A stretch of DNA of 45,948 nt, taken from the IMG/VR virus record IMGVR_UViG_3300018083_000013. One strand, given 5' to 3'. The position numbers and the translations under genes are program-made. The notes under the pieces were generated by a model. The model saw only the letters and a list, made by a program, of their open reading frames with translations. It did no database searches and was not told the DNA's origin. This document shows positions 4,770 through 34,785 of this stretch, in pieces. The DNA comes from a virus. Position 1 is the stretch's first letter. Each line of letters begins with the position of its first letter.

Positions 4770-7597
4770 GTCAGTCGGTCGTCCTGCGTTCATTTTCCGC
4801 CGGGGAGCTCGCGCCGTCGATTGGCGCACGCGCGGACTTGCCGAAGTACACGATCGCCGCGCGCACGGTCCGGAACTTTCTCGTGCAGAAGCATGGCGGC
4901 GTGGCGAATCGGCCAGGGCTCGCATTCATCGAACGTGTGAAAGGCGGGATCGCGTACCGAGCCGCGGTGCTCGCGCGCGCACCGACAAATTACTGGCGCC
5001 TGAATGAAGCGGGGAGCGGGACCGTCGCGTATGACCTCGGGTCCGGCCTCGATAACGGCACGTACGCCGGGAGCCCCACGCAAGGGACGGTCATGGCTTA
5101 CGGGGGCGTGGGTGTCACGTTCGACGGGGTCAACGATCAGGTCACGTATGCCGGGGTCGCCGCGTCGACGACGACCTTCACGGTCTCCGCGTGGCTCCGA
5201 CCAGGCACGCCGGGCGCGACGAACGCCTCGATATTTTCCGACACACCCTCGGGTACCACAAACGGGCTGTATCTGAGCACGGCAAACCTTCCGACGTTGT
5301 ACGTCAACGGCGCCGCGGTCCTTCAGGCGCCCGCGTTGACCGTGGGCAGTGAGCACCTCGTCACGATCGTCGTGACGGCCGGTGTCGCGCAGTGGTACAT
5401 CGACGGTGTCGCGAGTGGCGGGACCGTGGGCAGCGTCATCTCCTGGACCCCGACCGAAACCAGTACAACCGGGTCACGATTCACCGGGGTGCTCTCAGAC
5501 CTCGCCTATTGGTCAGGCGTGGCGCTCACCGCCAACCAGATCGCGGCGCTCTACGCGGCCCGCTATGACACGCAAGTCCAGTTGTTGAAGTACCTTGCGG
5601 ACGACCCGAACGAATCGATCCTGATTGAAGCGGGCGCCGGGTATCTGCGGTTCTACAAGGACGGGGCACAGGTCAACATCTCGGCGCCGACCGCCTGGAG
5701 CAACGCGACGGCCTACACGGCTGGCGACCTCGTGTCGCTTGCTGGCATCAACTACTACTGCATCCTCGCCCACACGAACCAGAGCCCGCCGAACGCGACC
5801 TACTGGTACGCGCTCACCGGCACGATCTACGAGATTCCGACGCCGTTCGCGAGCGGGTTCCGCTGGAACCAGTCCGGCGCGGTGATCACGCTCACGAATA
5901 CGGGTGTGGCGCCCTACGAATTGATCTACCTGTCGCTCACGCGATGGGTGCTACAGGCCGTGGCGATTGCTCCGGCGTCACCGACACCGACCAACGTGAC
6001 CGCGGCGTTTGCCTCGACGCCAGGACCGCAGGCCGACCAGTACCAGTACGCCGTGACCGCCGGCGCGCCTGGCAGCTTCGAAGAATCACTCGCCGGGGTC
6101 TCGGCTCGCGCGAGCGCGAATCCGCCGACCGCCACGGGGCCGAACGTCATCACCTGGGACGCCATGACGTACGGGGGCGTGGCGTGTCCGGAGTACTACG
6201 TCTATCGGGACAGCACGAAAAGCCTGTCGCGGCAGTTCCTCGGCACGGCTCGGACCAACGTGTTCCTCGACACCGGACTCGCGGAGGATCCGGCGCTGAC
6301 CCCGCCGATCAACGACATCGACCTGACGAGCTCGGCCAATCGTCCAGCCCTCTCCGCGTTCCACCAGCAGCGACGGTTCTTCGCGAACACGACGACGACA
6401 CCGGACGCGATCTGGGGCTCGAGGGTCGGGCAGCGATCGAACTTCTGCCGGTCGTCGCCCTTGCAGGACGACGACTCGCTGACGATTCGGATCGCGCAGA
6501 ACCAGAACCACCCGGTCCGGCATCTCGTCTCGGTCGCGGCCGGGCTGATTGTCTTCACCGCCGGCGGCGAGCACCGCATCATCTCCGCGGACGGCCCGGG
6601 CGGTCCCATCAGCCCGAACAGCCTGGACGCGATTCAGGATCTCTACGTGGGCGCCTCCGATGTCGTGCCGGAAGTGATCGGCAACTCGGTGATCTACGTG
6701 CAGGCGCGCGGCAAGGTCGTGCGCGATGTCCAGTACAACCAGGAAGTCGAAGGACTGGCCGGGCGCGACCTCACGCTCCTCGCGGGGCATTTCTTCGAGA
6801 AGTACACGATCAACGCCATCGCCTACCAGCAGAACGATCATTCGATTCTCTGGGCGGTCCGGTCGGACGGCACGCTCCTCGGGATGACCTACATCCGCGA
6901 GCAGGACATCTGGGGCTGGCATCGGCACGACTCCTACACGCGCGCCGGCCAGAGCGTGTTCGAAAGCATCTGCGTGGTCCCGGAAGACCACGAGGATGTC
7001 TTGTATGCGATCGTCGCGCGCTCGATCAACGGCAGCACCGTGCGCCTCATCGAACGGCTCGAGACCCGCGTGATTACGGACCTCGCGACCAATGCGATGT
7101 TCCTTGACTGTTCGCTGTCGCGCGTGACGGGCGGCGCCATCTCGACGTTGACGGGCCTCTCGCATCTCGAGGGCGAGACCATTGGCGTCGTGGGCGATGG
7201 CGTCTACCTCGGGACGTTCACGGTCGCGAGCGGTCAGGTCGTGCTCGGCGCGTCGTATTCGAAGATTCACGCGGGCCTGCTGTTCACCTCGGACCTCGAG
7301 ACGCTGGATCTGGATGTGGCCGGCGGTGACATCCGCGATCGGAAGAAGCGGGTCGGGTCCGTGTCGATGCTGCTGCAGGATTCGAATCGTCAGATTCAGG
7401 TCGGCATCAACGAAGCCACGCTCACGGCCTACACGCCGGGCGAAGCGGAGTCGCCTGCGACCGCCGAGTTCTCCGGCCTGGTCGAACTCCCGGTGATTAC
7501 CGAGCCCAACTACGAGGGCCGCGTGTTCATTCGGCAGGCGACACCGTTGCCGCTCACGATTCTTGGCGTGATTCCGCGCGTGGAGATGGGGGCATGA
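4766..7597 (+). CDS. gp12-like tail tubular protein B / nozzle with an inserted LamG-like domain and a CBM5/12-like motif
   Basis: ATG 4766 overlaps the upstream stop (ATGA). The protein is 943 aa and follows the gp11-like gene, as in T7. LamG insert at aa 76-266 (YWRLNEAG...FDGVNDQV...TFTVSAWLRP...LTANQIAALYAA). WSNATAYTAGDLVSLAGINYYCILAHTNQSPPNATYWYAL is CBM5/12-like. Confidence 0.6.
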   Translation: MSQSVVLRSFSAGELAPSIGARADLPKYTIAARTVRNFLVQKHGGVANRPGLAFIERVKGGIAYRAAVLARAPTNYWRLNEAGSGTVAYDLGSGLDNGTYAGSPTQGTVMAYGGVGVTFDGVNDQVTYAGVAASTTTFTVSAWLRPGTPGATNASIFSDTPSGTTNGLYLSTANLPTLYVNGAAVLQAPALTVGSEHLVTIVVTAGVAQWYIDGVASGGTVGSVISWTPTETSTTGSRFTGVLSDLAYWSGVALTANQIAALYAARYDTQVQLLKYLADDPNESILIEAGAGYLRFYKDGAQVNISAPTAWSNATAYTAGDLVSLAGINYYCILAHTNQSPPNATYWYALTGTIYEIPTPFASGFRWNQSGAVITLTNTGVAPYELIYLSLTRWVLQAVAIAPASPTPTNVTAAFASTPGPQADQYQYAVTAGAPGSFEESLAGVSARASANPPTATGPNVITWDAMTYGGVACPEYYVYRDSTKSLSRQFLGTARTNVFLDTGLAEDPALTPPINDIDLTSSANRPALSAFHQQRRFFANTTTTPDAIWGSRVGQRSNFCRSSPLQDDDSLTIRIAQNQNHPVRHLVSVAAGLIVFTAGGEHRIISADGPGGPISPNSLDAIQDLYVGASDVVPEVIGNSVIYVQARGKVVRDVQYNQEVEGLAGRDLTLLAGHFFEKYTINAIAYQQNDHSILWAVRSDGTLLGMTYIREQDIWGWHRHDSYTRAGQSVFESICVVPEDHEDVLYAIVARSINGSTVRLIERLETRVITDLATNAMFLDCSLSRVTGGAISTLTGLSHLEGETIGVVGDGVYLGTFTVASGQVVLGASYSKIHAGLLFTSDLETLDLDVAGGDIRDRKKRVGSVSMLLQDSNRQIQVGINEATLTAYTPGEAESPATAEFSGLVELPVITEPNYEGRVFIRQATPLPLTILGVIPRVEMGA

Positions 7598-8561: not shown

Positions 8562-10325
8562 ATGCCACGAGTCCCGCAATACACGCCGCGCGAATCACTA
8601 GCCCCGCTGCCGAATGCGCGGCGGTCTGCCTCCGTCACCGCGGACGCGCTCGGCGCCGACACGAGCCGGGAGCAGGCGCGCACGCACGCGGTGGCCGCGG
8701 CCTCGCTCGGCCAGGTCACGGACGCCGCGCTCGGCATCTACGGCCGGCAGGAAGCCGAGCGCCGGCGCGCGAAGGACGAATGGGAAGACCGGGCGAACCG
8801 GGTCGCCATCACGCGCGCAGAGACGGCCCTAGGTGAATGGGAACTGACGGCCTCGCAGGAGGCGTTCGCGCTCAAGGGGCAGGCCGCGCTCGGGGTTCCC
8901 GAGCAGGTCATGTCCGGCTACCGCAAGCGCGCCGATGAGATTGCGAACGGCCTAAACCCAATCCAGAGGGAGCAGTTCGACCTCATCCGCGGGAAGCGTG
9001 CGCTGAACCTCCAGGGCAAACTGCACGAGCACGTCTACACCGAGATCAAGGCGTACGAGGCGAGCGAGTATCAGGCGTCCATCTCGAACGCGCTCAGTAG
9101 CGCCGCGCACTACGCGAAAGACCCTCGTCGCGCCGGGCTCGAGCTCGACCGTGCCGTGACCTCGACCACGGACTTGCTAAAGAGCCAGGGCGCAGGCTAC
9201 GAAGCGATCGACGCGGCCGTGCTAAAGACGCTGACGATTGGACACTCGGCCATCATCGATCAGTTGCTAAAGAGCGACCAGCCAGCGAAGGCGAAGGCGT
9301 GGTTCGACAAGGTGAAGGATCACGAGATCAGCGGTGACGCGCTCGACAACATCGAGCAGAAGATCGAGCAGGGCTCACGGCTGAAAGAATCGCAGACGGC
9401 CACGGACAAGATTCTCGCGGAAGGCGGCACGTACTCGCAGCAACTCGAGAAGGCCAAGGACATCGAGGACGCGGAAGTCCGCAAACTGGTCGAGGGCATG
9501 ATCGACCACGAACGCGGCCGGCGCGATGCGATCGAGCGCGACATACGCGAGACGAACCTTCAGACCGTCGTCAATGCGATCGACGCAAAGAGCGGTCCGC
9601 CGAGCATGGCGTCCCTGATGAAGATGCCGGAGTGGCACGGGCTCACAGTGGGCGAACGCTCCGGGATGCTCAACTACCTCCAGAACCGCGCGCAGGGCAT
9701 CCCGGTAAAGACGGATGTCAAGGAGTGGTACCGGCTGATGCGGATGGCCGCCGACGAGCCGGAGAAGTTCGCGAAAGAATCGCTCCTCGCCTACAAATCC
9801 AGGTTGGACGAGGGCGACTTCAAGTCGCTGGCGAGTATGCAAGTCTCGATCAGCGGCAAGGCGTCGACCGCGGCGAACCGTGACCTCTTCACGTTCCGGA
9901 CCGTCAATCAGATCATCGACAGTTCGCTCCGCACCTACGGCGTCAACGACGACGACAAGAAGGACAAAGAGGCGGTCAAGCACACCGCGGACCTGACGGC
10001 CAACGTCTCGAGGCTCACGGCACAGTGGGTGCAGGACTACCAGACCGGGCCGAATGGCGCGCAGCGCGACCGTCCGACAGACCTGGAGATTCAGGCGTTC
10101 GTGGACAAGCTCGTCGCGCCGTCGTTTGAGTACGTCGCGCGCACCGGTTGGTTTGGTGGCGAGACGAAGGCGCAGGGCCGACTCGGAGACCTGAAGATCG
10201 AGCACGTTCCCGCCGGAGCACGACAGGCCATCGTGGACGACCTCAAGGCGAAGGGGTTCCCGGGCACGGTCCCGGATGAGATCATCCTGCGCGCGTACGT
10301 CTTCCGCCGGGCGGCTGGTCGATGA
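8562..10325 (+). CDS. gp15-position internal virion/ejection protein (587 aa, helical)
   Basis: Long ORF with coding-like GC3. Called on synteny only. Confidence 0.6.
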   Translation: MPRVPQYTPRESLAPLPNARRSASVTADALGADTSREQARTHAVAAASLGQVTDAALGIYGRQEAERRRAKDEWEDRANRVAITRAETALGEWELTASQEAFALKGQAALGVPEQVMSGYRKRADEIANGLNPIQREQFDLIRGKRALNLQGKLHEHVYTEIKAYEASEYQASISNALSSAAHYAKDPRRAGLELDRAVTSTTDLLKSQGAGYEAIDAAVLKTLTIGHSAIIDQLLKSDQPAKAKAWFDKVKDHEISGDALDNIEQKIEQGSRLKESQTATDKILAEGGTYSQQLEKAKDIEDAEVRKLVEGMIDHERGRRDAIERDIRETNLQTVVNAIDAKSGPPSMASLMKMPEWHGLTVGERSGMLNYLQNRAQGIPVKTDVKEWYRLMRMAADEPEKFAKESLLAYKSRLDEGDFKSLASMQVSISGKASTAANRDLFTFRTVNQIIDSSLRTYGVNDDDKKDKEAVKHTADLTANVSRLTAQWVQDYQTGPNGAQRDRPTDLEIQAFVDKLVAPSFEYVARTGWFGGETKAQGRLGDLKIEHVPAGARQAIVDDLKAKGFPGTVPDEIILRAYVFRRAAGR

Positions 10326-13300
10326 GCTACCTCTACGACGAGGAGTTCGACCAGCAACTCGGCGCGCCGCCAGCAGCACCACAAAAGCGCGACCCGTACG
10401 ACTCGTTTCTCGACTCCGTGGTCGGCACCAAGCGCGCCGAGACACAGGCCGCAGTCAAGCAGGCACCGCCGCAGGATCCAAAGAAGGCCGCGGAGATTCT
10501 GAAGTGGGCGGAACTGACGGGTCTCTCGCCGGAACTCCTCGAGCGCAACTACGACCGCGCGAAAGCTGACCTCACGTTCACGCCGGAACACGCCGGCGCG
10601 CTGATGACGGATGCGCCAGGTCTCGCGTCCTGGCTGACGCGGCAGGACCGCGTGAAGGTCGGCGCCGTCAGGCCGGAACTCCCGCAGATGATCAGCCTCG
10701 AGAAGTCCTTGCGCCAAGGCGCGGGTGCGCTCGGGGCTGGTGTCGCGGACATCGGCGCGAACTTCTGGGGCACGGTGCGCGGGCTCGCGGAAGGGCTGGA
10801 CGTGCCGACGCGAGTGGACGAGATGATCCGCTCGGTCTTCAAGGGCACGCCATTCGCGGCGATGCCTCGCGGGGTTGGCTCCTTCGATCCGACACCGAGC
10901 ACGCTGTCACAGGTCGCAGACTTCGCACGCGCCAGTCAGTACGAAGGACAAGGACTCGCGGACCAGATTCAAGGCGATGTCTCCAAGGTCGGGCCGCTCG
11001 GCCAGGCGGTGCTCGGCGGCATCCGCTCGGCCGGGCAAGTCCTGCCCACGCTCGCGCTCGGACCGGAGGCGGTGCTTGGCGCGATGGGCGTTGGCACCTT
11101 CGGGCAGGCGTACGGCGCCGGCCGCGATGAAGGCGTGGGCGTCTATCGTTCCCTCGCGTACGCCGGCGGGCAGACGGCGATCGAGATTGCGACCGAGAAA
11201 CTGCCCGTCTCATGGATTTTCCGTGACCTGAAAGAAGGCACGCCGCTCATCAAGACGCTGCTGCACCAGATGGCGTCAGAGATTCCAGGCGAACAGGTCG
11301 CCACGCTCCTGCAAGACCTGAACGATTGGGCGACCCTGCCGTCGAACCAGACGAAGACCTTCCAGGACTACCTGAACGAACGGCCGAGCGCCGCGGTGGC
11401 GACTCTCATCAGCACCGTGACCACGGTCGGCCTGATGACCTCGAGCGCGCATATCGCCATGAAGACGCTGGAGCAGGGCGGTAAAGACCTCGAGAAGTCC
11501 GAGACCGTCAAGAACCTGCCCGAAGTCGCCGTCGAGGTACTGCGCGAGGCGACGAAGGGCACGCCGCTCGAGGATGTCCACGTTGACCTGAAGACGTTCA
11601 CGGAGTTCTTCCAGTCGAAGGGCATTGACCCGGCCACGATGGCGGCGCAGATCACGGGCGATGCCACGGCCTACGCGGACGCCATCCAGACCGGCGAGGC
11701 GCTGAAGCTGCCGACCGCCGGCGTGCTCGTGCACATCGCGTCGAAGCCGGAGTTCTCGGAGTTCCTGAAGGATGTTCGCCGTGCGCCGGAGGCGATGACC
11801 TCGAGGGAAGAAGAGTCGCTGGCGAAGGAGCTCGCGTCGGTCGAGACCGCGCCAGAGGCCGACGCGACGGCACCGGTCGCCCGTCCAATCTTCGACCACG
11901 CGCAGGCGCAGTTCGTCGAAGGCGGCAAGGTCACGCCACAGGTCGCGCAGCACTACGCGGCGCTGATGGAAGCGGCGTTCACGCAACTCGCGGCCCCGCT
12001 CGGCATGAACCCGGCGGCGCTGTATCAGCGGTACGGGTTGACCGTCACCAGGGAAGTCGCGGGACGGCTCGGCCAGGCCCGCGCGCACGGACTGCTCCCG
12101 GCCGAGGGTGTGACCTCCCCTGTCACGGCCACGCCGCCGGCCGACCAGGAGTCACGGCTCCAGCGCCTCGCGGCCATCGCCAAGAACGCCCTCCGAGGCG
12201 CACGCCGGCTGGTGGGATTGCAGAATCCGGCCGCTGGTGCGACCATATCCGCTGATGGTTCCGAAGGCGCTCCCGGTGCTGGAACAGGGTCGGACGTACG
12301 CGGTGATCGTCCGCAATCTGTCGCGGCTCCTGGACGCGGGGCTGACGCTGAAGGAAGCGGCACCGATCCTCAAGTCGAAGTCCGGCCTGACGAGGCTCTA
12401 CCCGCTGCCTTCCTTGACGACTTCACCGGGATCCTCGCCGGCGCTCGCGCCCTAGGCTACACCGGCACCGACGCGGCGCTCGCCGCGCAATATGCTGACG
12501 CGATCGACTACGCGCGTGGGGTCATTCGTGATTCCGCGGCTGACGACGGCACGACGGCGCGCGACCTCCTCAAAGAGATTTCCTCGCTCGGCGGATTCGG
12601 TCTCAGCGAAGAAGGCGAGACCGGCTATCGCGGCGAGCTCACGCACCTCCTCGAGAACATCACCAAAGACACGTCGCGCCGGTCGGTGATTCGCCGCGGC
12701 AAGCGCGCGGGCCAACTGATGCCGCGCGCGGTGCAGCAGTCCGGTGGCCTGCCTGGCATTCCGCACCTGGTCGTCCGCAACGGCGGCATGACCGCCGACG
12801 ACATCCTGACGCACATCAACGCGGAAGGCTCGCCGTGGGCGGGCCAGTTCGATTCCCTCTCGGACTTCATGGAGGCGGTGGGTCAGGCGATTGCGACCGA
12901 GACCGGAATGCGAGACGAACCGCAGTCGCGCGGGCTCACAGTGCGCGGCACGCTGTCGGACCTGATGGACGTGAAGCCGGACAGCGCGTGGTGGCGCGAC
13001 ACCGCGCAGGACGACGTGGAAGACGGCGACGAGGATCCTGCGGCCCGCGACGATATGAACGCGACCGTGGCCGGTGCGACGTTGCGGCGTACCGGCAACA
13101 TGATGTGGAAGTACCTGGACGGGCAGAAAGAGGCGCCGGACAACGGCGCCGAGCGCGCCCAGATCCGGGAGGTCTTCCAGGGGATCCTCGAGCGGCTGCA
13201 GGCGGGTGGCTATCCGGACCTGACGATGTCCGATTTGCAGGCGTTGCTCTGGTATCCAGAGCGCCGGCTGTATGACATGGGAACATCTGTCAAGGACGTT

Positions 13301-16300
13301 GCGTCAGGGTATACTGATGACGAGGCACCTGACTATGCCAACGCCGCAGTCGCCCTCGCAGAAGCCGCAGGAATCGACCCAGGATCCATCCAATCAGCGC
13401 GAGCCCGAGTTACTGCCAGAATCAGCGCAGCAGGAGCAGGAAGAAGTGCTTCTGGATCGGCAACTGGAACGTCAGGCCAAGGCCAGCAAGACGCCGTAGC
13501 TCCGGCCGACTCCTACCAGCAAGTCTTCCGCCAGACGGCCCGCGCGTCTCTGCGCCTCTCGGACGATCAGATCACGCGGACGATGGTGCTGTTTCAGGAC
13601 GCGGACCTGTCGAGCGTCCTGCACGAATCGGCGCATCTGTTTCTCGACGTGTTCGCGGACATCGCGAATGAACTGATCCAAGTCGAGAACCAGACGCCGG
13701 AGCAGACGCGACAACTCTCGGACTTTCTTGAGCTCATCCGCTGGACCGGCTTCGAAGGTTCACTCGCGGAGTGGCGCGCCCTCGACACGAACGGCAAGCG
13801 GCCGTTCCACGAGAAGTTCGCGGAGGCGTTCGAATCGTATCTGCGCGACGGCAAAGCACCGAGCCCTGAACTCCGCGGCGCGTTCGCGCGGTTCCGGTCG
13901 TGGCTCCTCGCGCTCGCGAAACATCTCCGCACGACGGTGCAGTTCTCGCCGGACGTGCGGAAGGTGGTCGACCGAATGCTCGCGACGGATGCGGCTATTG
14001 AGCAGGCGGCGAATGAAGCGAACCTCGCGCCGATGTTCCTGACGCCGGAAGCGGCCGGCATGACACCGGATCGGTTCGCGCTCTACCGCGAGGCGATTGT
14101 CCGGGCGTCCGACAAAGCCCGCGAGACGCTGGAAACGCGACTCCTCGAGGACGTGCGCCGGGAGCAGACGGCCGAGTACCGCGCGCGGAAGACGGAGATT
14201 CGCGGCCAGGTCGCGGCCGAGGTCTACGCCGAGCCGGTCTATCAGGCGATCAGCGCGATGCGGAAAGGCACGACGCCGGACGGCCGGTCGCTCATCGAGG
14301 GCGAAGACGCCGTGCCGATGAAGCTCGACCGGTCCAGGCTCATCGAAGTCTACGGGCCGGACCGCGTGGCGCAACTGCCGAAAGGCATCGCGACGAATGA
14401 CGGCGGTTTGCTGGCAACCGAGATCGCGGACCTCTTTGGCTACGACTCCGGCGATGCGCTCCTGACGGCGCTCGCGCAGGCCGAGCCGATGCGACAGAAG
14501 ATCGACCGGCAGACCGAAGCGCGGATGCTGGCCGAGCACGGCTCCATGCTCCTCGACGGCACGCTCCACGAGCAGGCCAGAGCGGCGATCGTGAACGACG
14601 AGGCCGAGCAAGTGGTCCGCGAAGAACTGCGCGCCCTGCACCGGCTGCAGAAGGCGACGAAGCCCTTCGTCGCGGCCGAGGCCGCGGCACAGCAGAAAGA
14701 ACGCGACTACGAGCGCCGCTGGTTCGACGCCGAGGCCAAACTGCGCGAGGCCATGATCAAGGGCAAGGCGCAAGCGGAGATCGACGCGATTCGGCAGGAA
14801 GTCTCCGAGCTCAAGCGGAAGGCGCGTGGTGGCGCGGAAACGATTCGCGGCGCCGAGCCGTCCGTGGGATTCTTCGACGCGCTCGCGGATACCAGACTGG
14901 CGCGGACCCGCGTCAACGAACTGGCCCCGCAGAAGTTCTGGGTCGCGGCCCGGCAGGCGTCGAAGGACGCGACCGAAGCGGCGGCGCGGCAGGAACTCGA
15001 TCGCGCGGTCGCGGCCAAGCAGCGGGAACTCCTGAACCTAGCGCTGTTCCGGAAGTCGATGGAACTGCAGGACGAAGTCCGCACGCGGGCGAAGTTCGCG
15101 CGCGACCTGGCGAAGACGAAGAAGCAGGCGCAGCTTGGCCTCGCCGGCGAGGTGTTCCAGGACGGCGTGAACCAAGTCCTGGCGCGGTTCTCGTTCGCCT
15201 ACATGACGAAGCAGCAACTGGCGTCCCGGATGGCGTACCTCGAGGTCTTCGCGGACCGGGATCTGCCCACGGCGCTCCAGACGCCGCCCACGCCCTACCA
15301 GTCCCTGATGACCGAAGAGTTCATGGGCATCACGGACGGGCTGAGACAGATCGTCCACCTCGCGAGTCAGGAAAACCAATTCATCGCGGCGAGCAACAAA
15401 GGCACGCTCACCGACAAAGCCGCCGAAGGCGCGGCGTCGATTCTCAAGCACACCAAGAGCGGCCCGCCGCAAATCGAGAACACGCGCGACGACGAGAAGA
15501 AACGATTCTGGGGCGGCTTCCTCGCGCGGCACACGAAGATCAGCGAGTTCGCGCACGAGCTCGACGGGTTCGTGACCGGCGGATGGGTGTGGGAGCATGT
15601 CGTCCGTCCGTTCAACGAGCGGCAGTCGTGGGAAGACCATCGCAAGGCGAAGGAAGCCACGGCCTACCTCGACCTTCTCAAGCGGTTCTACACGCTCAGT
15701 GAGATCGCGCGGTTCAACGAGAAGACGGAAGTCCGCGGCGTGGGGAGTCTGACGAAGGAAGCGCGGATCGTCATCGCGCGGAATTGGGGCAACCAGGACG
15801 GCCGCGATCGGCTCCTCAATGACCCGGTGCTGAAGGCGCACGGCTGGACGCCGGCGCACTTTCAGGCGGTGCTCGACTCGCTCGACGGCCGCGACTGGCA
15901 GGCGGTGCAGGCGACGTGGGACTTCCTTGATTCGTTCTGGCCGGAGATTGAGGCGAAGCAGTTCCGGGTCACGGGCCTGAAGCCGAAGAAGGTGCAGGCG
16001 GTCTCGGTGGACACGCGCTTCGGCATCTTCAAGGGCGGCTACTACCCGCTCGCGTACGACAGTAGCAAGGCGCCATCGGACCAGCAGAAGAAGCTGGCGG
16101 AAGAAGCCACGCTGCGCGCGAAGGGCGGCTACGTCTCCACGACGACCGGCCGCGGCCACACCAAGGCGCGCATGGCGCATGTGCAGCTCCCGGTGCTGCT
16201 CGAGGACGTGGTCGGCCGGCACGTTGACCAGGTTGTTCACGACCTCGCGTTCCATGAAACGCTGATCGATGTCAACCGGCTCATCGGACACAAAGACATC

Positions 16301-17506
16301 CAGCAGGCCATCCTCGCGACGAAGGGCGACAAGGCGTACCGGCAGTTCACGCTGACGATCGAGGACATCGCGGTCGGCTACATGAACGTCGAGGGCGAGG
16401 AGCACCGGATCGCGTCGTTTATGAAGACCGGCGCGCAGATTGCCGGCATGGGCTACAACGCCTGGACGGCCGCGCAACAGATCACCGGCAACTCCAACAC
16501 GATCGCGCTGTTCGGCGCCGGGAACTACACGCGCGGCCTGAAGAGTATGCTCGCGCATCCGGACGGGTTCGTGAAGCGGATGCAGTGGGCGGTCGAGAGC
16601 TCACCGCTCCTGAAGACGCGCGCGACGAACATCAACCAGGACACCGCGGACCTCCACCGCACGCTCCGGAAGCACGGCTCGTGGTTCGAAAAGATGCTCC
16701 TGTCTGCGACCGGCGACCGGCTGACGCAGGACATGATCGCGAACTCGTTCTTCTGGCATATCGGCATGGCGCAGTTGTCGGCCGATTTTCCCGCGTGGTT
16801 CACCGGCTACGAGATGGCGATGGCGGATCCGGCGAATCGCGGCGACGAACAGCGCGCGTTCGCCATCGCAGACCAGGCCGTGAAGGACGCGCAGGGCACC
16901 GGCTCCATTCACGACCTCGCGGCCGTGCAGCGCGGCGGGCCGGTCATGCGGCTGTTCCTCGTGTTCTACAGCTACGGGAACCTCCTCTTCAACCAGACGC
17001 GGCGCATCACCGGCCGCACGGACCCGCGCAGCGCGACTCAGATTGCGAAGATGCTCCGCGACCTGTCGCTGGTCTACATCATCCCGTCGCTCTACACGAC
17101 GGCGCTCGCGGTCGCCATCGGGAAACTCAAGCCGGACGATTGGGAGGAGTTCTTCCTCGAGGTCGCGAAGAACAGCGTCTCGACGGCGATGAACACGATG
17201 GCGTGGGTGCGCGAAGGCGGCGCGGCCATCTCGGCGGGACTGTTTGGCGACGTGGGCGACGTGCGCGGCTACGAAGGCCCGGCCGGCACGCGGATGTTCT
17301 CGCTCCTCACGCGCGCGATCGTGCAGGTCAAGCAGGGCGAAATGGACGAGGCGGCGATCAAGGCGGTCGCGAACTTCGTCGGCACGATCCTGCATGTCCC
17401 GGCGGTCCAGATTGAACGCTCGGCGCGCGGTGTCGCGGCGATGCTCGAGGAGCAGTCGGCCAATCCGACCCCGCTGATTTTCGGACCGCCGAAGAAGGAG
17501 AACTGA
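10322..17506 (+). CDS. Giant (2394 aa) gp16-position internal virion/ejection protein, polyvalent-type
   Basis: Uninterrupted 7.2-kb ORF with an ATGA overlap upstream. HESAH (HExxH) at aa 1101-1105 (nt 13622-13636). Low-complexity Gly/Ala/Pro linker at about nt 12150-12450. Hydrophobic helices near the C-terminus (FFWHIGMAQLSADFPAWF, MRLFLVFYSYGNLLF, LSLVYIIPSLYTTALAVAIG). Confidence 0.7.
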   Translation: MSYLYDEEFDQQLGAPPAAPQKRDPYDSFLDSVVGTKRAETQAAVKQAPPQDPKKAAEILKWAELTGLSPELLERNYDRAKADLTFTPEHAGALMTDAPGLASWLTRQDRVKVGAVRPELPQMISLEKSLRQGAGALGAGVADIGANFWGTVRGLAEGLDVPTRVDEMIRSVFKGTPFAAMPRGVGSFDPTPSTLSQVADFARASQYEGQGLADQIQGDVSKVGPLGQAVLGGIRSAGQVLPTLALGPEAVLGAMGVGTFGQAYGAGRDEGVGVYRSLAYAGGQTAIEIATEKLPVSWIFRDLKEGTPLIKTLLHQMASEIPGEQVATLLQDLNDWATLPSNQTKTFQDYLNERPSAAVATLISTVTTVGLMTSSAHIAMKTLEQGGKDLEKSETVKNLPEVAVEVLREATKGTPLEDVHVDLKTFTEFFQSKGIDPATMAAQITGDATAYADAIQTGEALKLPTAGVLVHIASKPEFSEFLKDVRRAPEAMTSREEESLAKELASVETAPEADATAPVARPIFDHAQAQFVEGGKVTPQVAQHYAALMEAAFTQLAAPLGMNPAALYQRYGLTVTREVAGRLGQARAHGLLPAEGVTSPVTATPPADQESRLQRLAAIAKNALRGARRLVGLQNPAAGATISADGSEGAPGAGTGSDVRGDRPQSVAAPGRGADAEGSGTDPQVEVRPDEALPAAFLDDFTGILAGARALGYTGTDAALAAQYADAIDYARGVIRDSAADDGTTARDLLKEISSLGGFGLSEEGETGYRGELTHLLENITKDTSRRSVIRRGKRAGQLMPRAVQQSGGLPGIPHLVVRNGGMTADDILTHINAEGSPWAGQFDSLSDFMEAVGQAIATETGMRDEPQSRGLTVRGTLSDLMDVKPDSAWWRDTAQDDVEDGDEDPAARDDMNATVAGATLRRTGNMMWKYLDGQKEAPDNGAERAQIREVFQGILERLQAGGYPDLTMSDLQALLWYPERRLYDMGTSVKDVASGYTDDEAPDYANAAVALAEAAGIDPGSIQSARARVTARISAAGAGRSASGSATGTSGQGQQDAVAPADSYQQVFRQTARASLRLSDDQITRTMVLFQDADLSSVLHESAHLFLDVFADIANELIQVENQTPEQTRQLSDFLELIRWTGFEGSLAEWRALDTNGKRPFHEKFAEAFESYLRDGKAPSPELRGAFARFRSWLLALAKHLRTTVQFSPDVRKVVDRMLATDAAIEQAANEANLAPMFLTPEAAGMTPDRFALYREAIVRASDKARETLETRLLEDVRREQTAEYRARKTEIRGQVAAEVYAEPVYQAISAMRKGTTPDGRSLIEGEDAVPMKLDRSRLIEVYGPDRVAQLPKGIATNDGGLLATEIADLFGYDSGDALLTALAQAEPMRQKIDRQTEARMLAEHGSMLLDGTLHEQARAAIVNDEAEQVVREELRALHRLQKATKPFVAAEAAAQQKERDYERRWFDAEAKLREAMIKGKAQAEIDAIRQEVSELKRKARGGAETIRGAEPSVGFFDALADTRLARTRVNELAPQKFWVAARQASKDATEAAARQELDRAVAAKQRELLNLALFRKSMELQDEVRTRAKFARDLAKTKKQAQLGLAGEVFQDGVNQVLARFSFAYMTKQQLASRMAYLEVFADRDLPTALQTPPTPYQSLMTEEFMGITDGLRQIVHLASQENQFIAASNKGTLTDKAAEGAASILKHTKSGPPQIENTRDDEKKRFWGGFLARHTKISEFAHELDGFVTGGWVWEHVVRPFNERQSWEDHRKAKEATAYLDLLKRFYTLSEIARFNEKTEVRGVGSLTKEARIVIARNWGNQDGRDRLLNDPVLKAHGWTPAHFQAVLDSLDGRDWQAVQATWDFLDSFWPEIEAKQFRVTGLKPKKVQAVSVDTRFGIFKGGYYPLAYDSSKAPSDQQKKLAEEATLRAKGGYVSTTTGRGHTKARMAHVQLPVLLEDVVGRHVDQVVHDLAFHETLIDVNRLIGHKDIQQAILATKGDKAYRQFTLTIEDIAVGYMNVEGEEHRIASFMKTGAQIAGMGYNAWTAAQQITGNSNTIALFGAGNYTRGLKSMLAHPDGFVKRMQWAVESSPLLKTRATNINQDTADLHRTLRKHGSWFEKMLLSATGDRLTQDMIANSFFWHIGMAQLSADFPAWFTGYEMAMADPANRGDEQRAFAIADQAVKDAQGTGSIHDLAAVQRGGPVMRLFLVFYSYGNLLFNQTRRITGRTDPRSATQIAKMLRDLSLVYIIPSLYTTALAVAIGKLKPDDWEEFFLEVAKNSVSTAMNTMAWVREGGAAISAGLFGDVGDVRGYEGPAGTRMFSLLTRAIVQVKQGEMDEAAIKAVANFVGTILHVPAVQIERSARGVAAMLEEQSANPTPLIFGPPKKEN

Positions 17507-27687: not shown

Positions 27688-27891
27688 GTGTCAGCAGAAC
27701 TTATCACGATTCTCGTGTGTAGCGTAGTGAGCGGTGCCATCGGGTTCCTTGCGGGCACGCGGTGGGAGCGCATGAAGTCGGACTTCGCCATTGAGGCCGC
27801 GGCGACCGAGGCGGCGCTCGCGCGACACGAAGCGACCAATCTGGCGATTCAGAATCAGCAACTGCGCGACCAGTTGAAAGGCGGGCGGTAA
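27688..27891 (+). CDS. Small membrane-anchored coiled-coil protein
   Basis: GTG start 7 nt after aaggag. N-terminal TM helix LITILVCSVVSGAIGFLAG. Confidence 0.55.
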   Translation: MSAELITILVCSVVSGAIGFLAGTRWERMKSDFAIEAAATEAALARHEATNLAIQNQQLRDQLKGGR

Positions 27892-28403
27892 TGGCGAACG
27901 CCAGCCTCTCGGTCAACCCCGCGCTGTCAGAACTCCAGACGCACGTCCTGACGGCCTTCGGTTACCTCTACGGCGCCGCACAGCGAGGCGTCACGTCCGA
28001 CCTGTTCGACGCCTACGGGCGTCTCCTCAAGGCCACGGGTCGCACGATCGACCAGGACGCCCCGCCGCGCATGATGCGGAACCACGAAAAACTCCTGCCC
28101 TTCGGTCTCGTGCGGGACGCCGGCACGCGGCTCCTGATGGTCGAGGAAGTGGTCGGGCCGCTGATGCGCTACCTCGCCTACGAATCGCACTGGTGGCTGG
28201 CCGACGTGACCATGAAGGGATGGGCGCTCGCGGAAGCCGAGTTCCATCAGAAGTGCCACGACGAGGCGCTGATCGACGCGGCCAAGTACGACGCGGACGG
28301 CGAAGAGGGCGAAGCGGAACTCTGCCGGCGCGGCGCGGACATTTCACTGGAGCAGTCGCGGAAGTTCGCGGCGCTCGCGCTCGGAGAAGGGTGGGTCAAG
28401 TAA
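27891..28403 (+). CDS. Hypothetical early protein (170 aa)
   Basis: TAATG coupling at both ends; clean ORF. Confidence 0.55.
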   Translation: MANASLSVNPALSELQTHVLTAFGYLYGAAQRGVTSDLFDAYGRLLKATGRTIDQDAPPRMMRNHEKLLPFGLVRDAGTRLLMVEEVVGPLMRYLAYESHWWLADVTMKGWALAEAEFHQKCHDEALIDAAKYDADGEEGEAELCRRGADISLEQSRKFAALALGEGWVK

Positions 28404-29869
28404 TGCGCGACATCATCCTGATCGACCTCTCCTCGATCGCGCATCCGATTTGGCATATGTCCGGCGCCGAGCCTGACCCGAATGCGGCGTCCCAGAAGAT
28501 CGTCGCGCGGGTGCGGTCGATTGCCACGGACCAGCCGCACGTCGCCGTCTGCTGCGACAAGGGCAAGTCCTTCCGGCACGACATCACGCCGACCTACAAG
28601 GCGAACCGTCCGGAGTCGGACGCCACGCTGCGCCATCAGATTCAACTGGCCGTCGAGATTCTTCAGGCTGACGGGTTTCCGGTCTGGGCGGTTCCGGGGT
28701 TCGAAGCGGACGACCTGATCGCGTCGGCGACGGTGCAGGCGCTCAACGACGAAGAGACCACGGTCGCCATCTTCTCGGCCGACAAGGATCTGCTGCAACT
28801 GGTGGGCGAGCGCGTGCGCCAGGTGTCCACGATCAACGGCGTCGTCTACGACGCGGCTGGCGTGCGCGAGAAGTTCGGCGTGTCGCCGTCCGAGATGCGC
28901 GATTACCTGACGCTGGTTGGCGATGCCGCGGACAACGTGCGCGGCGCGAAGGGCATCGGGGCGAAGACGGCCGCGGAACTACTGGAACGCTTCGGCTCGA
29001 TCGACAACCTCTATCGCGACATGCGCGAGGTCGGTGTCGTCTCGTTGAAGTTCACGCCGTCGCGCGTCACGGCGCTGCGCGAGTTCGAACCGCTGTACCC
29101 CCAGACCCGCGAACTGATCACGCTGCGGACGGATGTCGACCTGCCGTTCGCGCAACTGTTCGACACACGGACACCGAAAGACGCCGGGACGTTCGGCATG
29201 GATGAGGACACGACGATGGACACCAAAGACGAAACGATGCCGATGCCGACCGCGCCGCCGCCGATGACGAAGTTCGCTGAACAGGCGCCGGCGCCGGTCG
29301 AAACAGCCGCTCCGGTGAAGGCGATCGCTACGCGCAGCGAAGTCCTTCCTGCGCCGGCGGAATGGGAGCGCGGCCTCGAGCCACGGTCGATGACCGAGTT
29401 GATCACGCTCGCGAAGTGTCTCTTCGAGTCGCGTCTGTTCTCGGCCTACGGCACGCCGCAGGCGGTCCTGTCCACGCTCCTCGCCGGGCGCGAACTCGGG
29501 ATGCAGTCGATGGCGGCGATGCGCGCCATCCACATCATCGAGGGCAAGCCCACGCTGTCGGCCGACCTGATTCGCGGGTTGATCCTGCGGTCAGGGAAGG
29601 CCAAGTACTTCCGCTGCACCGAGCGGAGCGCCACGTCTGCGACGTTCGTCACGAAGCGGATCGGCGACCCGGAGATGTCGCTGACCTACACGATCGAGGA
29701 GGCCACGGCGGCAGGGCTCGTCAAGGAAAAGAGCGGATGGGTGAAGAACCCGGCCGACATGCTCGTCGCCAGGGCCGGGTCGAAACTGGCCCGCCTCGCC
29801 TACCCGGATGTCGTCCACGGCATCTACACCCGCGAAGAGATTGAAGAAGGGCGGGAGGTCGCGGCCTGA
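28403..29869 (+). CDS. Fusion protein: FEN/Pol I-type 5'-3' exonuclease (PIN + H3TH) with a C-terminal RecT-like single-strand annealing domain
   Basis: N-terminal domain: IDLSSIAHPIWH, TYKANRPE, PGFEADDLIAS, SADKDLLQLV, LVGDAADNVRGAKGIGAKTAAELLERFGS. A Pro/Ala/Thr/Asp linker follows. C-terminal domain: LLAGRELGMQSMAAMRAIHIIEGKPTLSADLIRGLILRSGK...WVKNPADMLVARAGSKLARLAYPDVVHGIYTREE, which is RecT-like as seen in actinophage RecT proteins (recalled from memory). Confidence 0.7.
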   Translation: MRDIILIDLSSIAHPIWHMSGAEPDPNAASQKIVARVRSIATDQPHVAVCCDKGKSFRHDITPTYKANRPESDATLRHQIQLAVEILQADGFPVWAVPGFEADDLIASATVQALNDEETTVAIFSADKDLLQLVGERVRQVSTINGVVYDAAGVREKFGVSPSEMRDYLTLVGDAADNVRGAKGIGAKTAAELLERFGSIDNLYRDMREVGVVSLKFTPSRVTALREFEPLYPQTRELITLRTDVDLPFAQLFDTRTPKDAGTFGMDEDTTMDTKDETMPMPTAPPPMTKFAEQAPAPVETAAPVKAIATRSEVLPAPAEWERGLEPRSMTELITLAKCLFESRLFSAYGTPQAVLSTLLAGRELGMQSMAAMRAIHIIEGKPTLSADLIRGLILRSGKAKYFRCTERSATSATFVTKRIGDPEMSLTYTIEEATAAGLVKEKSGWVKNPADMLVARAGSKLARLAYPDVVHGIYTREEIEEGREVAA

Positions 29870-30318
29870 TGGCGGTCAACGAAACGCTCCTCGTCCTGCG
29901 GTCGATCGACGCTTCACTAAAGGAGCTGGTCGCCATCGCGCGGACGAAGCGCGGCGGCACGGCGTCTGCGGCGGTGGTGGCCGATGACCGCGACCTCGAC
30001 AGCACGCACGGCGACTTCGTCGTGAAGTTCGACCCGCGCGACTGGCGCGGCGACTCCTGCAAGGGGCTCCGTCTCTCACAGTGCCCTGCGGACTTCCTCG
30101 ACATGCTCGCCGGCACGCTCGACTACCTCGCGGAGAAGGCCGAGCGGACGAACGAGCAGACGACTGGCGGCAAGGCGGTCGCGCCCTACAAGCGCAAAGA
30201 CGCGGCGCGGTGTCGCGGGTGGGCCGCGAGGGTTCGCGCGGGCAAGACGGCGCCTGCGACCAACGGCCACGCCGGCGGAGGCGAATGGGAAACATCGGAG
30301 GAGGACGGGTTTCGATGA
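29869..30318 (+). CDS. Conserved phage hypothetical protein (recombination-module associated)
   Basis: TGATG coupling. The pattern DDRDLDSTHGDFVVKFDPRDWRGDS...CPADFLDMLA...YKRKDAARCRGWA is recalled from other prophages; its function is unknown. Confidence 0.55.
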   Translation: MAVNETLLVLRSIDASLKELVAIARTKRGGTASAAVVADDRDLDSTHGDFVVKFDPRDWRGDSCKGLRLSQCPADFLDMLAGTLDYLAEKAERTNEQTTGGKAVAPYKRKDAARCRGWAARVRAGKTAPATNGHAGGGEWETSEEDGFR

Positions 30319-30782
30319 GCCAAGACCAAGCGGTCTTTGTCGGCACGGTTGAAGCGGACGGCCGCGTGAAGCTCGAGTTCCCGTCGCAGATGCGCGCCTA
30401 CTGCAAGGCGCGGTACGCCGGGCAGTGCGTGGACGTGATCATTGCGCCGCAGGGGCACGCGAAGACCCGCGCGCAGGAGGCGGGCTTCCACGCGATGATC
30501 ACGCCCTGGGCGCGCGATGATGGTCACCGGATTGACGACCTGAAGCGCGACATCCTGCGGGCGGTCTTCGGCGAACAGGAGCACACCAATCCGCTGACCG
30601 GCGAGATCACGCTGGTGCTGCGTGAGCCGTCCACGTCGAAGCTGAACCGCGCGAAGTACTGCGAGCTCATCGAGCGGACGCTGGAACTCGGCGCCGAGTG
30701 CGGCGTCGTCCTCATCGCTCCCAACGAATACAAGCAGATGAAAGAGCGCGAGAACAGGCGCCAGCGAAAGGCGGTCGCGTAA
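30315..30782 (+). CDS. Hypothetical protein, possibly NinB/Orf-like recombination mediator
   Basis: ATGA coupling. There is weak pattern similarity (…EPSTSKLNRAKYCELIERTLELGAECGV) to NinB-fold proteins. Confidence 0.5.
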   Translation: MSQDQAVFVGTVEADGRVKLEFPSQMRAYCKARYAGQCVDVIIAPQGHAKTRAQEAGFHAMITPWARDDGHRIDDLKRDILRAVFGEQEHTNPLTGEITLVLREPSTSKLNRAKYCELIERTLELGAECGVVLIAPNEYKQMKERENRRQRKAVA

Positions 30783-31009
30783 TGCCCATCCAGACTGACG
30801 TAGACATCTGCGACCACTGCGAGACGGTCTCTGACGACGGCCTGACCACGGTCTGCGTGGAACCGGGCGAGCCGATGGACATGGGGTTCCCCGGTTGTGA
30901 CGCGGTCCTCGAGGACTGGTGCGCGGCCTGCGTGAAGTCCGCGAAGCACCACGGCATCGTGCGCGACGAAGAACCGGAACCAGATCCAGACGTGGAGTTG
31001 AAGGCGTGA
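30782..31009 (+). CDS. Small acidic Cys-containing protein (75 aa)
   Basis: TAATG coupling. Contains CDHC...C...CAAC. Confidence 0.5.
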   Translation: MPIQTDVDICDHCETVSDDGLTTVCVEPGEPMDMGFPGCDAVLEDWCAACVKSAKHHGIVRDEEPEPDPDVELKA

Positions 31010-31500
31010 GTCTGGACTTCCTGAAGACGCGCGAAGAGATCGAGGCAGAGTTGACGCCGGAGGAACTGCGTCAGCGCACCGCGAAGCCGGCGCCAGGCGC
31101 GGCACGCCTGAAGCGGCAGACCGACAAGCTGAAGGATAAGGGCGCGATCGAGAAAAGCATCACGGCCGTCGAGGCCGAAGCGCGGCGCGCCGACCGGGAG
31201 ATTCGCTTCTTCTGTTTCCTGCGCGACCACCGGAAGTGCCGGGCGTTCGGCATCCTCCTGAAGTTCGACACGGACAACCTGAAAAAGAAGTCCGAGAACC
31301 ACCACATCGTCTTGAAGTCTGCCGGCGGATCCGACGACCCGGAGAACCGGATCACGTTGTCACCAAAGGCGCATCAGATGCGGCACGCCGAAACCCTCGA
31401 CGTTGAGGGGAACGGGAACGGGACCGTCACGTTCACGGAATACGAGTTCAACACGGACGGGTCTCGCCGGTTCATTCGAAGTTGGGAGAGCACGCTGTGA
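31006..31500 (+). CDS. HNH endonuclease-like protein
   Basis: GTG 31006 overlaps the upstream stop (GTGA). Contains ENHHIVLKSAGGSDDPENRITLSPKAHQMRH. Confidence 0.6.
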   Translation: MSLDFLKTREEIEAELTPEELRQRTAKPAPGAARLKRQTDKLKDKGAIEKSITAVEAEARRADREIRFFCFLRDHRKCRAFGILLKFDTDNLKKKSENHHIVLKSAGGSDDPENRITLSPKAHQMRHAETLDVEGNGNGTVTFTEYEFNTDGSRRFIRSWESTL

Positions 31501-33140: not shown

Positions 33141-33174
33141 GCAGAAGGCGGGCGCATGACGGCCCTGCGGGTGC
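33141..33174 (+). repeat. 34-bp exact direct repeat, copy 1 (leader plus the first 6 codons and first base of codon 7 of the MTase gene)
   Basis: gcagaaggcgggcgcatgacggccctgcgggtgc, identical to 33987..34020. Confidence 0.95.
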
Positions 33175-33908
33175 AGCCGGCCTACTACAACGAGAGCGAT
33201 CCGTTCGCCGCCGCGTGGTTGCGCGAACTGATTAAAGCGAGGCTAATAGCCGATGGTGAAGTTGACGAACGAGACATCAGAGACGTGCAAGCCGACGACG
33301 TGCGCGGATTCGTGCAGTGTCACTTCTTCGCCGGCATTGCCGGATGGTCGTATGCGCTTCGATTGGCAGGATGGGCTGATGCCAGAACCATCTGGACCGG
33401 AAGTTGTCCCTGCCAACCGTGGAGCGTGGCGGGAACGAATCAAGGGGCCGACGATTCCCGCGATCTTTGGCCGACGTGGAGCCGGCTCATCCGCGAGTGT
33501 CGCCCTGTCTCGGTCCTTGGAGAGCAGGTTGCGTCAGCAGATGCCCTCTTGTGGATTGATCGCGCTGCGGAGGACATGGAAAGCCTGGGATACGCCTTCG
33601 GGGCGTTCGTTCTCCCGGCTGTTAGTGTCGGCGCCCCACACCAACGTGACCGACTTTACTTTGTGGCCGACGCCAACGGCGCAACGTCAGAGCGGAGGGA
33701 TCAGATTCTTCGGCGGGACGCGCGCCCGCAACAAGTGGGTCAGCCTTGGGGTTTTGCCGACTGGCAAGGCGGACTTATGCCGACTGGCGGCGTGGATGAT
33801 GGGATTTCCGATGGACTGGCTAAACGCATCGTCAACGGTTTCGGCAATGCCATCGTCCCGCAAGTCGCGGCGGAAGTGATCAAAGCCTACATGGAGATTG
33901 TGGCGTGA
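33156..33908 (+). CDS. DNA (cytosine-5)-methyltransferase-like protein
   Basis: FFAGIAGWS (motif I-like), GSCPCQPWS (motif IV PCQ), GEQV (motif VI ENV-like) and QRDRLYFVA (motif VIII). Confidence 0.7.
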   Translation: MTALRVQPAYYNESDPFAAAWLRELIKARLIADGEVDERDIRDVQADDVRGFVQCHFFAGIAGWSYALRLAGWADARTIWTGSCPCQPWSVAGTNQGADDSRDLWPTWSRLIRECRPVSVLGEQVASADALLWIDRAAEDMESLGYAFGAFVLPAVSVGAPHQRDRLYFVADANGATSERRDQILRRDARPQQVGQPWGFADWQGGLMPTGGVDDGISDGLAKRIVNGFGNAIVPQVAAEVIKAYMEIVA

Positions 33909-33986: not shown

Positions 33987-34020
33987 GCAGAAGGCGGGCG
34001 CATGACGGCCCTGCGGGTGC
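33987..34020 (+). repeat. 34-bp exact direct repeat, copy 2
   Basis: Identical to 33141..33174. Confidence 0.95.
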
Positions 34021-34785
34021 TGGTGGGGTGCGAGTTTTCAGGCGTGGTGCGCGAAGCGTTCCGCGCGAAGGGTCACGAGGCTTGGTCATGCGATTTGCTT
34101 CCGGCCGAGGACGGTAGCCGGTGGCATTTCCAGTGCGACGTTCTGAATGTTCTTAAGAACGGTTGGGATGTGGCGATATTTCATCCACCATGCACCTACT
34201 TAGTTACTTCTGCGGCATGGGCGTTTACTGACGGGCCGTATCACCAGAAGGTTAAGCCTGGCACATTAGTCGGAGCGGCGCGACGTGAAGCTCGGGAAGA
34301 GTCGCTGTCATTTGTGCGCGCCCTGATGGATGCGCCTATTCCACGTATCGCTATTGAGAATCCTATCGGCGCGATTGGAACGCGCATCCGGAAGGCTGAT
34401 CAAGTTATTCATCCGTGGCAATTCGGTCACGACGCCAGTAAGGCGACGTGTCTATGGTTAAAGGGGCTGCCGATGCTGAAGCCGACGGACATCCTTAACT
34501 TGCCCGGCGTGGGTCAGGTGCGAGTGCTGCGACGACTTTCTCTGCACGATTCACGGCACTAATCAGAATCCAATCCACGCCTACGATTGTGCTTGTCCGT
34601 CGATTGATACATGGGCATTGAGAGGCATCGATCCGTATTCCGAAGGTGGCAAAGGCTACCGCGCAAACCAGACAGCCAGTGGCCAGAACAAACTCACACC
34701 TGGACCGAATAGATGGAAAGAACGCAGCATTACCTATCAAGGCATAGCCGACGCGATGGCCGAGCAGTGGGGAACTTTTCGATGA
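34002..34785 (+). pseudogene. Second C5-methyltransferase-like gene split over two frames (+1 frame change within 34483-34562)
   Basis: Frame A (34002..34562) carries CEFSGVVREAF, FHPPCTYL and IAIENP. The next frame is open from 34483 to TGA 34783-85 and encodes WVRCECCDDFLCTIHG..HAYDCACPSIDTW...RWKERSITYQGIADAMAEQWG. That is the typical C-terminus of this MTase family, and it has no start codon of its own. Confidence 0.6.

Follow-up and report, generated by a model that had tools for sequence, protein, structure and literature searches.

Recombineering builds on phage exonuclease/annealase pairs, whose portability is limited by the contacts that the annealase C-terminal domain (CTD) makes with the exonuclease and with the tail of SSB, the host protein that binds single-stranded DNA. 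A locus in the viral record IMGVR_UViG_3300018083_000013 (IMG/VR) raises the question of whether such a pair can be carried by one polypeptide and, if so, whether that polypeptide works alone. The whole stretch of DNA analysed, 45,948 nucleotides in length, is referred to here as the window. A preliminary description of it, made from the letters of the sequence, had read the gene at positions 28403 to 29869 as a FEN-type 5'-3' exonuclease fused to a RecT-like annealase. The locus probably represents a phage single-strand-annealing recombination module in which exonuclease and annealase lie in one chain and the exonuclease is a 5' nuclease of the Pol I-type FEN kind.

The single FEN-RecT polypeptide that had been described is one unbroken open reading frame (ORF) of 488 amino acids (aa) on the plus strand, with the following parts:

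28403..29869 (+): FEN-RecT fusion gene, ATG at 28403, stop at 29867-29869, 488 codons, no internal stop
28412..28879 (+): PIN-like 5'-3' exonuclease N-domain, aa 4-159, including the helical-arch region at aa ~62-89 (PF02739)
28880..29152 (+): helix-3-turn-helix (H3TH) DNA-binding domain, aa 160-250 (PF01367)
29174..29353 (+): predicted disordered Pro/Ala/Thr/acidic linker, aa 258-317 (pLDDT, composition, and variability)
29354..29866 (+): RecT/Redβ-type annealase core, aa 318-488, without a CTD (PHROG match, AlphaFold2 fold, and homology)

The motifs named in the preliminary description were all found, GAKGIGAKTA at aa 181-190 together with HIIEGKPTLSADLIRGLILRSGK and WVKNPADMLVARAGSKLARLAYPDV, and its Pro/Ala/Thr/Asp linker of about 60 aa corresponds to aa 258-317, which are rich in P, A, and T (P10, A10, T9, and D5 out of 60) and predicted to be disordered. 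The full-length AlphaFold2 (AF2) model, computed with the family alignment, contained two confident domains with pLDDT mostly 85-98, separated by a disordered segment at aa 267-313 (pLDDT < 50). Across 59 homologues the linker measured 46 to 100 aa and was hypervariable in sequence, the frame was always kept, and both folded halves were strongly conserved.

The covalent fusion is genuine and conserved. In a search space of 5.8 billion proteins, at least 120 clusters matched it with 98 to 100% coverage, 51 to 74% identity, and lengths of 467 to 544 aa, and these homologues came from independent JGI, ENA, Logan, and NCBI assemblies. A scan of IMG/VR seeded by the annealase domain alone returned 79 loci, with FEN and annealase in one ORF in 60, a standalone annealase in 15, and a locus cut by the contig end in 4. 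The same architecture, sought in databases as had been proposed at the outset, is thus present in those clusters and in 60 of the 79 IMG/VR loci. A census over 1.84 billion representatives at 50% identity gave 1,603 proteins at E ≤ 1e-30; among the best 150 of the 1,603 representatives, 95 had a complete FEN and annealase, 20 an N-truncated FEN, and the rest were mostly apparent fragments starting in the linker. A joining of adjacent FEN and RecT genes by sequencing or assembly error, to which the low complexity and weak conservation of the linker would lend some colour, is extremely improbable. The fusion occurs as a single ORF in the independent assemblies at 38 to 83% identity, with linkers that differ in length and sequence and stay in frame, and a UniProt viral entry (A0A6J5MUB0, uncultured Caudovirales phage, 45% identity over 482 aligned columns) has the identical architecture. 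The initial doubt over a sequencing error or frameshift is excluded by this recurrence of the same ORF.

The sole named carrier of the fusion is a metagenome-assembled genome of Vicinamibacterales (Acidobacteriota), whose protein NCBI MEO8679245.1 (family member P0111) has the same architecture. None of the cultured-phage records of INPHARED covered at least 80% of the fusion, and a full-length alignment search of GTDB genomes seeded by the FEN motifs, in which Pol I and FEN genes alone appeared among the matches listed, was uninformative on hosts. Protein P0103, considered at 53% coverage as a carrier of another C-terminal domain, is the same fusion with a longer linker. Two phages found both by the FEN search and by the RecT search were rejected as cases of fused or adjacent FEN and RecT: in a Salinibacter phage the neighbour of the RecT-like gene encodes a helix-turn-helix protein and no FEN, and in a Gordonia phage RecT pairs with a RecE-like nuclease.

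The FEN half exceeded the Pfam cut-offs in both of its domains (PF02739, 1.7e-32, 112.9 bits, cut-off 34.3; PF01367 for H3TH, 6.3e-20, 71.9 bits, cut-off 40, with pLDDT 95-98 in the AF2 model) and matched phrog_107, annotated as exonuclease, at 6e-34. Its best NCBIfam model was DNA polymerase I (PRK05755, 3.1e-53), and the family profile compared with PDB gave Taq (2.9e-38), M. smegmatis Pol I (2.3e-37), and Xni (6e-36) ahead of T5 (1e-18) and T4, which was also weaker. The carboxylates of metal sites A and B (D8, E101, D103, D104, D127, and D129) were invariant in 59 sequences and D52 nearly so; the GDxxDN aspartates of H3TH, D174 and D177, were invariant as well. The reference carboxylates of E. 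coli Pol I are D13, D63, E113, D115, D116, D138, and D140 together with the GDxxDN aspartates (PMC5499597). In the region of the helical arch, whose conserved basic residues serve FEN enzymes in threading the 5' end, Y65, K66, and R69 were invariant in the same alignment (YKANR; YKAGR in Taq), and a helix was predicted at aa 73-89. Since all carboxylates of both sites are conserved, the fusion nuclease is, judged from its residues, very probably active and of the two-metal-site, Pol I-like kind. The FEN domain with PIN acidic motifs of the preliminary description was borne out in this respect.

The C-terminal half was established as a RecT/Redβ-type annealase core by three independent lines of evidence: fold, transitive homology, and gene context. 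It matched phrog_561, "RecT-like ssDNA annealing protein," at 1.6e-25 over aa 328-485 and phrog_4171 at 1.1e-16; a precomputed PF03837 match was present in about one third of the fusion family members, and the TIGR model bet_lambda scored the window protein at 19.6 bits (cut-off 76.95). A single-sequence phmmer search of this half against PDB returned noise alone and the full-length family profile gave a marginal Redβ match (E = 0.36); a comparison of folds was therefore required. The AF2 model of aa 312-488 (pLDDT 87.3) contained the β-β-β-α core, and its top PDB match by Foldseek was the N-terminal domain of Redβ (7UJL, E 3.3e-4, TM 0.52/0.56, probability 1.0), followed by phage A118 RecT (7UB2, E 2e-3, TM 0.50/0.47, probability 1.0), with all others at E > 0.04. 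The modelled half thus appears to have the Rad52-like β-β-β-α fold of RecT and Redβ, in agreement with the RecT-like domain first proposed. Many chains of the SPO1 anti-CBASS protein Acb4 were also returned, at E 0.04-0.3 and with partial alignments of 83-112 columns, and were rejected as nonsignificant; this similarity probably reflects a shared small β-sheet/helix motif in the model and no homology.

Transitively, the annealase domain shares 32% identity (E = 4e-22) with a protein of a Salinibacter phage, and this protein scores 29.9 bits, above the Pfam RecT cut-off. The annealase domain also matched 417 phage records, many of them annotated as RecT-like, including mycobacteriophage Halo, and standalone RecT-like homologues were found in Propionibacterium, Gordonia, Mycobacterium, Microbacterium, and enterobacterial phages.

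Compared with these standalone relatives, the fused annealase is cut short. The core ends 0 to 8 residues ahead of the stop codon in all 60 fused IMG/VR loci, as against 27 to 298 residues beyond the core in all 15 standalone ones, and among the best 150 of the 1,603 census representatives at most 35 residues, mostly no more than 13, follow the core. The fusion therefore has no C-terminal exonuclease/SSB-binding domain or tail. In Redβ, the CTD is the contact site first for lambda Exo and afterwards for the final ~9 residues of host SSB (PMC11611040), and its truncation abolishes recombination and leaves annealing intact (PMC5052646). The fused lineage has thus lost exactly the module by which an annealase is normally coupled to its nuclease, which is consistent with a tether that took over this role. 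Some ORFs with a standalone core were very long (419-656 aa; L155/L158 at ~3335-4594, L163/L164 at 3944-5365, L165 at 3272-5242, and L167 at 3572-5128), with 200-300 residues past the core or long N-terminal extensions without FEN; they may represent further kinds of fusion, or ORFs that were called too long.

The FEN appears to have displaced the canonical exonuclease, because the closest standalone relatives adjoin PD-(D/E)XK or YqaJ nucleases. The standalone homologue lies next to RecE in Propionibacterium phage Anatole, to exoVIII/PD-(D/E)XK in Thermobifida phage P1312, and to a RecE-like gene in Gordonia phage Shlim410, and the neighbour in the closest IMG/VR standalone relatives is a PDDEXK_1/DUF2800 or YqaJ nuclease. 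By tblastn, a PD-(D/E)XK-type nuclease was detected near the annealase in 2 of 63 fused loci versus 7 of 15 standalone loci, both counts being lower bounds as the few queries may miss divergent nucleases. No PD-(D/E)XK or YqaJ exonuclease was detected in the window, and to that extent the earlier statement that no separate exonuclease gene is evident nearby stands.

These counts also bear on a purely post-synaptic role ("anneal and trim"), in which the annealase would pair strands exposed by host or other nucleases and the FEN would trim 5' flaps. The bacterial members Xni and mycobacterial FenA are mainly flap endonucleases (PMC5499597), post-annealing flap trimming by gp6 was proposed by the authors of the T7 work (PMC4124056), and a few fused loci retain a Cas4-like nuclease. 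Such a role is nevertheless quite unlikely: a PD-(D/E)XK, YqaJ, or RecE-type nuclease accompanies the fusion in only those 2 of 63 loci and none was detected in the window, and both metal sites are complete, as in the exonucleolytic Pol I, T5, and T7 enzymes, whereas Xni retains site A alone (PMC5499597).

The gene that directly follows the fusion bears on whether the fusion works alone:

29869..30318 (+): partner protein, 149 aa, start overlapping the fusion stop (TGATG)

The partner begins with a basic, conserved domain of ~125 aa, which a variable linker joins to an acidic tail with an aromatic ending (...SEEDGFR in the window). Its homologue lies directly 3' of the fusion in L004, L006, L007, and L008 at 50 to 63% identity and follows the fusion gene in 47 of the 60 fused IMG/VR loci. 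The partner family comprised 105 clusters in a single-sequence search and at least 539 in a profile search, all of them labelled hypothetical; comparison with Pfam, PHROG, and PDB profiles gave no match and no OB-fold domain was detected. Its N-domain carries the motifs LRSIDxSLKxLV, DRDLDxxYGDPxVKFxPRDW, and PYKRKDAARARGWAxRxR, in members of ~140-170 aa (P0121-P0225 and P0377-P0434). An aromatic residue stands within the last 3 positions in 93 of the 105 tails, the last 10 residues include 3.2 acidic ones on average, and many tails end in DDIPF, DEIPF, or DDLPF. A DDIPF-type ending is the canonical SSB C-terminal tip (SSB-Ct motif, PMC5872125).

In a sister clade of fused loci, 38-41% identical in the annealase core, the partner position is taken by a genuine SSB (PF00436, about 1e-28 to 1e-30) with tails ending in DNDDIPF, DDLPF, or DDMPF, and at that position partner and canonical SSB were mutually exclusive across the fused loci. 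The SSB-paired clade consists of L148, L150, L151, L152, L157, L161, and L162; in L146, which falls in the same identity range, neither partner nor SSB was detectable. The partner was rejected as a divergent SSB, given that hhalign against the sister-clade SSBs covered the last ~10 residues alone and profile searches gave no annotated relatives. By its sequence features it looks like a nonhomologous SSB stand-in that kept or acquired the SSB tip. Because the fusion is translationally coupled to an SSB-tipped partner, with a true SSB in related loci, the recombination unit probably comprises at least two genes and a one-protein system is unlikely. The "one-protein recombinase" suggested in the preliminary description is therefore not sustained, and neither is the absence of a nearby SSB, in so far as an SSB-tipped protein is encoded directly downstream.

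A bolder proposal is that the pair forms a self-contained recombination machine of novel design, a single-chain FEN-annealase without an SSB-reading CTD accompanied by a member of a new, non-OB class of protein, in which the SSB tip is carried on a novel basic domain of ~125 aa and which stands in for SSB. It is a tentative idea, possible rather than expected. The host SSB tail is the main known barrier to transferring recombineering systems among bacteria, and if the contact with SSB did come in cis from the partner, the two proteins may work independently of that tail.

The steps of a single-strand-annealing mechanism can be proposed from the properties of the family and its context. Starting from a free 5' end, at a nick or at the end of a double strand, the FEN domain would degrade that strand 5'→3' and so expose a 3' single strand. 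The annealase core, tethered by the linker of 46-100 aa, would be delivered onto the nascent single strand at a fixed 1:1 ratio and would oligomerise in the manner of RecT/Redβ, the covalent tether substituting for the lost CTD, which is the usual dock for the partner exonuclease. The co-translated partner, or the true SSB in the sister clade, would supply the SSB-type acidic tip; in the case of the partner, the tip might act on the FEN as the tail of gp2.5 acts on T7 gp6, stimulating it or holding it in position, or it might link the complex to SSB-interacting host fork proteins. Once complementary single strands have annealed, 5' flaps would be trimmed by that same domain, FEN, leaving ligatable nicks.

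Several points weigh against this mechanism. Pfam RecT gave the window protein 20.5 bits, below the gathering score of 24 and over aa 418-484 alone, and the fold matches of the annealase were of moderate strength (TM about 0.5). The roles chiefly associated with bacterial Pol I-type 5' nucleases are flap and Okazaki-fragment processing rather than long-range resection, so the resection step may be minor relative to flap trimming. The fusion has no copy of the annealase domain by which SSB tails are normally read, a difficulty for any binding of the partner tail. Lastly, two fused loci also encode a Cas4-like PD-(D/E)XK nuclease, L008 (7027-7701) and L144 (~4628-5236), which might do the resection there. 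The FEN fusion is thus compatible with a canonical-fold nuclease and the exclusion is not strict. In both loci the Cas4-like gene stands directly after the partner gene.

The window has 64.5% GC and belongs to a temperate tailed phage of soil type, with genes for a major head protein, tail protein, large terminase, integrase, and methyltransferases. Upstream of the fusion lie integrase, repressor, Cro-like, and Xis-like genes, and downstream NinB/Orf, an HNH endonuclease, and a replication initiator. The immediate neighbours other than the partner are:

27891..28403 (+): upstream ORF, 170 aa, TAATG overlap with the fusion start, no family match
30312..30782 (+): NinB/Orf-like recombination mediator, 156 aa (phrog_72, 2.9e-10), ATGA overlap with the partner

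The overlapping stops and starts form a chain from the 170-aa ORF through fusion, partner, and NinB/Orf to a 76-aa ORF. A promoter and terminator scan gave counts no higher than the shuffled expectation. The 170-aa ORF, considered as a core component, was conserved in the nearest relative alone and is probably outside the core system. The NinB-like protein that had been noticed is present, not directly after the fusion but as the second gene downstream, behind the partner; it scored 16.4 bits against Pfam NinB, below the cut-off. Because the NinB/Orf-like gene was detected in about 4 related loci alone, it is accessory and lies outside the core. Lambda Orf is described as a mediator loading RecA or Redβ onto SSB-coated single-stranded DNA (PMC4118853). 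The relative L008 has a RusA gene.

This setting would also suit a replication or repair factor, in which the FEN would remove RNA primers and 5' flaps and the RecT-like domain would do no more than hold it on DNA that is single-stranded or coated with SSB, in the way that the polymerase domain of Pol I positions the 5' nuclease. The nearest sequence relatives of the FEN, bacterial Pol I 5' nucleases together with Xni, have their established role in Okazaki-fragment maturation (PMC12926913), a replication-initiator gene lies 2.5 kb downstream of the fusion, a neighbouring SSB or SSB-tail protein fits a fork-associated role, and T7 gp6 performs both replication and recombination jobs. It is an unlikely primary role, however, as the standalone homologues of the C-terminal domain are consistently paired with recombination exonucleases, the CTD was lost exactly where the nuclease was fused, which argues that the nuclease assumed the role of recombination partner, and NinB/Orf and RusA-type recombination genes share these operons. 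A replication role and a recombination role are compatible and not mutually exclusive, and both the replicative and the post-synaptic alternatives are plausible and partly compatible with the single-strand-annealing module.

Further genes were observed around the loci. An AAA_23 (SbcC/RecN-like) ATPase gene lies directly upstream of the fusion in L007 (3697-5004) and three genes downstream of the standalone RecT-like gene in Salinibacter phage 1_25 (L001, 6630-7901); such an ATPase may recur as an accessory in this annealase clade. HNH endonuclease genes occupy varying positions (window 30919-31500 (+); L004 3276-3770, 7300-7836, and 8733-9431; L009 3438-3944; and between RecE and RecT in Gordonia phage Shlim410), which suggests mobile homing-type insertions. 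DNA methyltransferase-like ORFs are located in the window at 33156-33908 and 34002-34562 (+); the first matches positions 66-166 of 324, the middle third, of a C-5 cytosine methylase profile and is possibly a truncated or split gene. In the structural region, at 10322-17506 (+), a very long ORF (2394 aa) may be a tail fibre or tape-measure fusion.

The fusion family amounts to a natural experiment in which the exonuclease fold was swapped, a protein contact was turned into a tether, the CTD was deleted, and an SSB-tailed protein was added. It lets the purpose of the CTD be tested, and whether proximity alone suffices for loading an annealase onto resected DNA. With about 1.9 kb the two genes are also a compact tool candidate from high-GC soil phages, whose hosts, e.g., Acidobacteriota, are currently without genetic tools. 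For annotation, a large fusion family is mislabelled as plain 5'-3' exonuclease: JGI labels read "5'-3' exonuclease" or "DNA polymerase-1," A0A6J5MUB0 is labelled "PIN_53EXO domain containing protein" and MEO8679245.1 "5'-3' exonuclease H3TH domain-containing protein," with the annealase half unrecognised, and the partner family of at least 539 clusters is without any annotation. A nonexhaustive search of the literature, which included a PIN-superfamily classification, a 2021 survey of single-strand annealing proteins, a 2023 structural review, and a 2026 polymerase survey, found no natural FEN-RecT fusion and no description of an SSB-tip protein like the partner.

Among known systems, T7 gp6 with gp2.5 is the closest functional precedent, and as a precedent for FEN-type recombination nucleases it limits the interest of the fusion. 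Recombination in T7 requires gp6, a FEN-family 5'-3' exonuclease with flap activity, and gp2.5 stimulates this enzyme only if the acidic tail of gp2.5 is retained (PMC4124056). The FEN had been called unusual in the preliminary description, and its fold does differ from PD-(D/E)XK, but given gp6 it is not unprecedented in phage recombination (PMC4124056). As proposed for the window, T7 employs a FEN-family nuclease in phage recombination and flap removal, in cooperation with an acidic-tailed protein. In T7, annealing is done by the OB-fold SSB gp2.5 and the proteins are separate, whereas in the window a RecT-type annealase is fused to the FEN, the tail is borne by a third component, in which no OB fold was detected, and the FEN is nearer to bacterial Pol I than to the T5/T7-type enzymes.

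Bacterial DNA polymerase I and the FEN/Xni/ExoIX enzymes are the closest sequence relatives of the N-terminal half, with the same acidic residues and H3TH, and Pol I provides a precedent in that its 5' nuclease is likewise joined to another domain that handles DNA. The fusion differs in that it is without polymerase and 3'-5' exonuclease domains, its C-terminal partner is an annealase, and the gene is phage-borne.

With lambda Red (Exo and Beta) and Rac RecE/RecT the fusion shares the combination of a 5'→3' exonuclease and a RecT/Redβ-fold annealase, here at 1:1, the placing among the early genes of a temperate phage, close to NinB/Orf, and standalone homologues that belong to true RecE/RecT-type pairs. 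The separate alkaline exonuclease subunit of PD-(D/E)XK fold that marks classical SynExo/EATR systems was not detected in the window, and the annealase is paired with an exonuclease in the same chain. The module departs from the canonical recombinase fourfold: the nuclease fold is FEN/PIN-like and not PD-(D/E)XK, nuclease and annealase are joined in one covalent chain, the annealase has lost its exonuclease/SSB-binding CTD, and a dedicated SSB-tailed partner is present.

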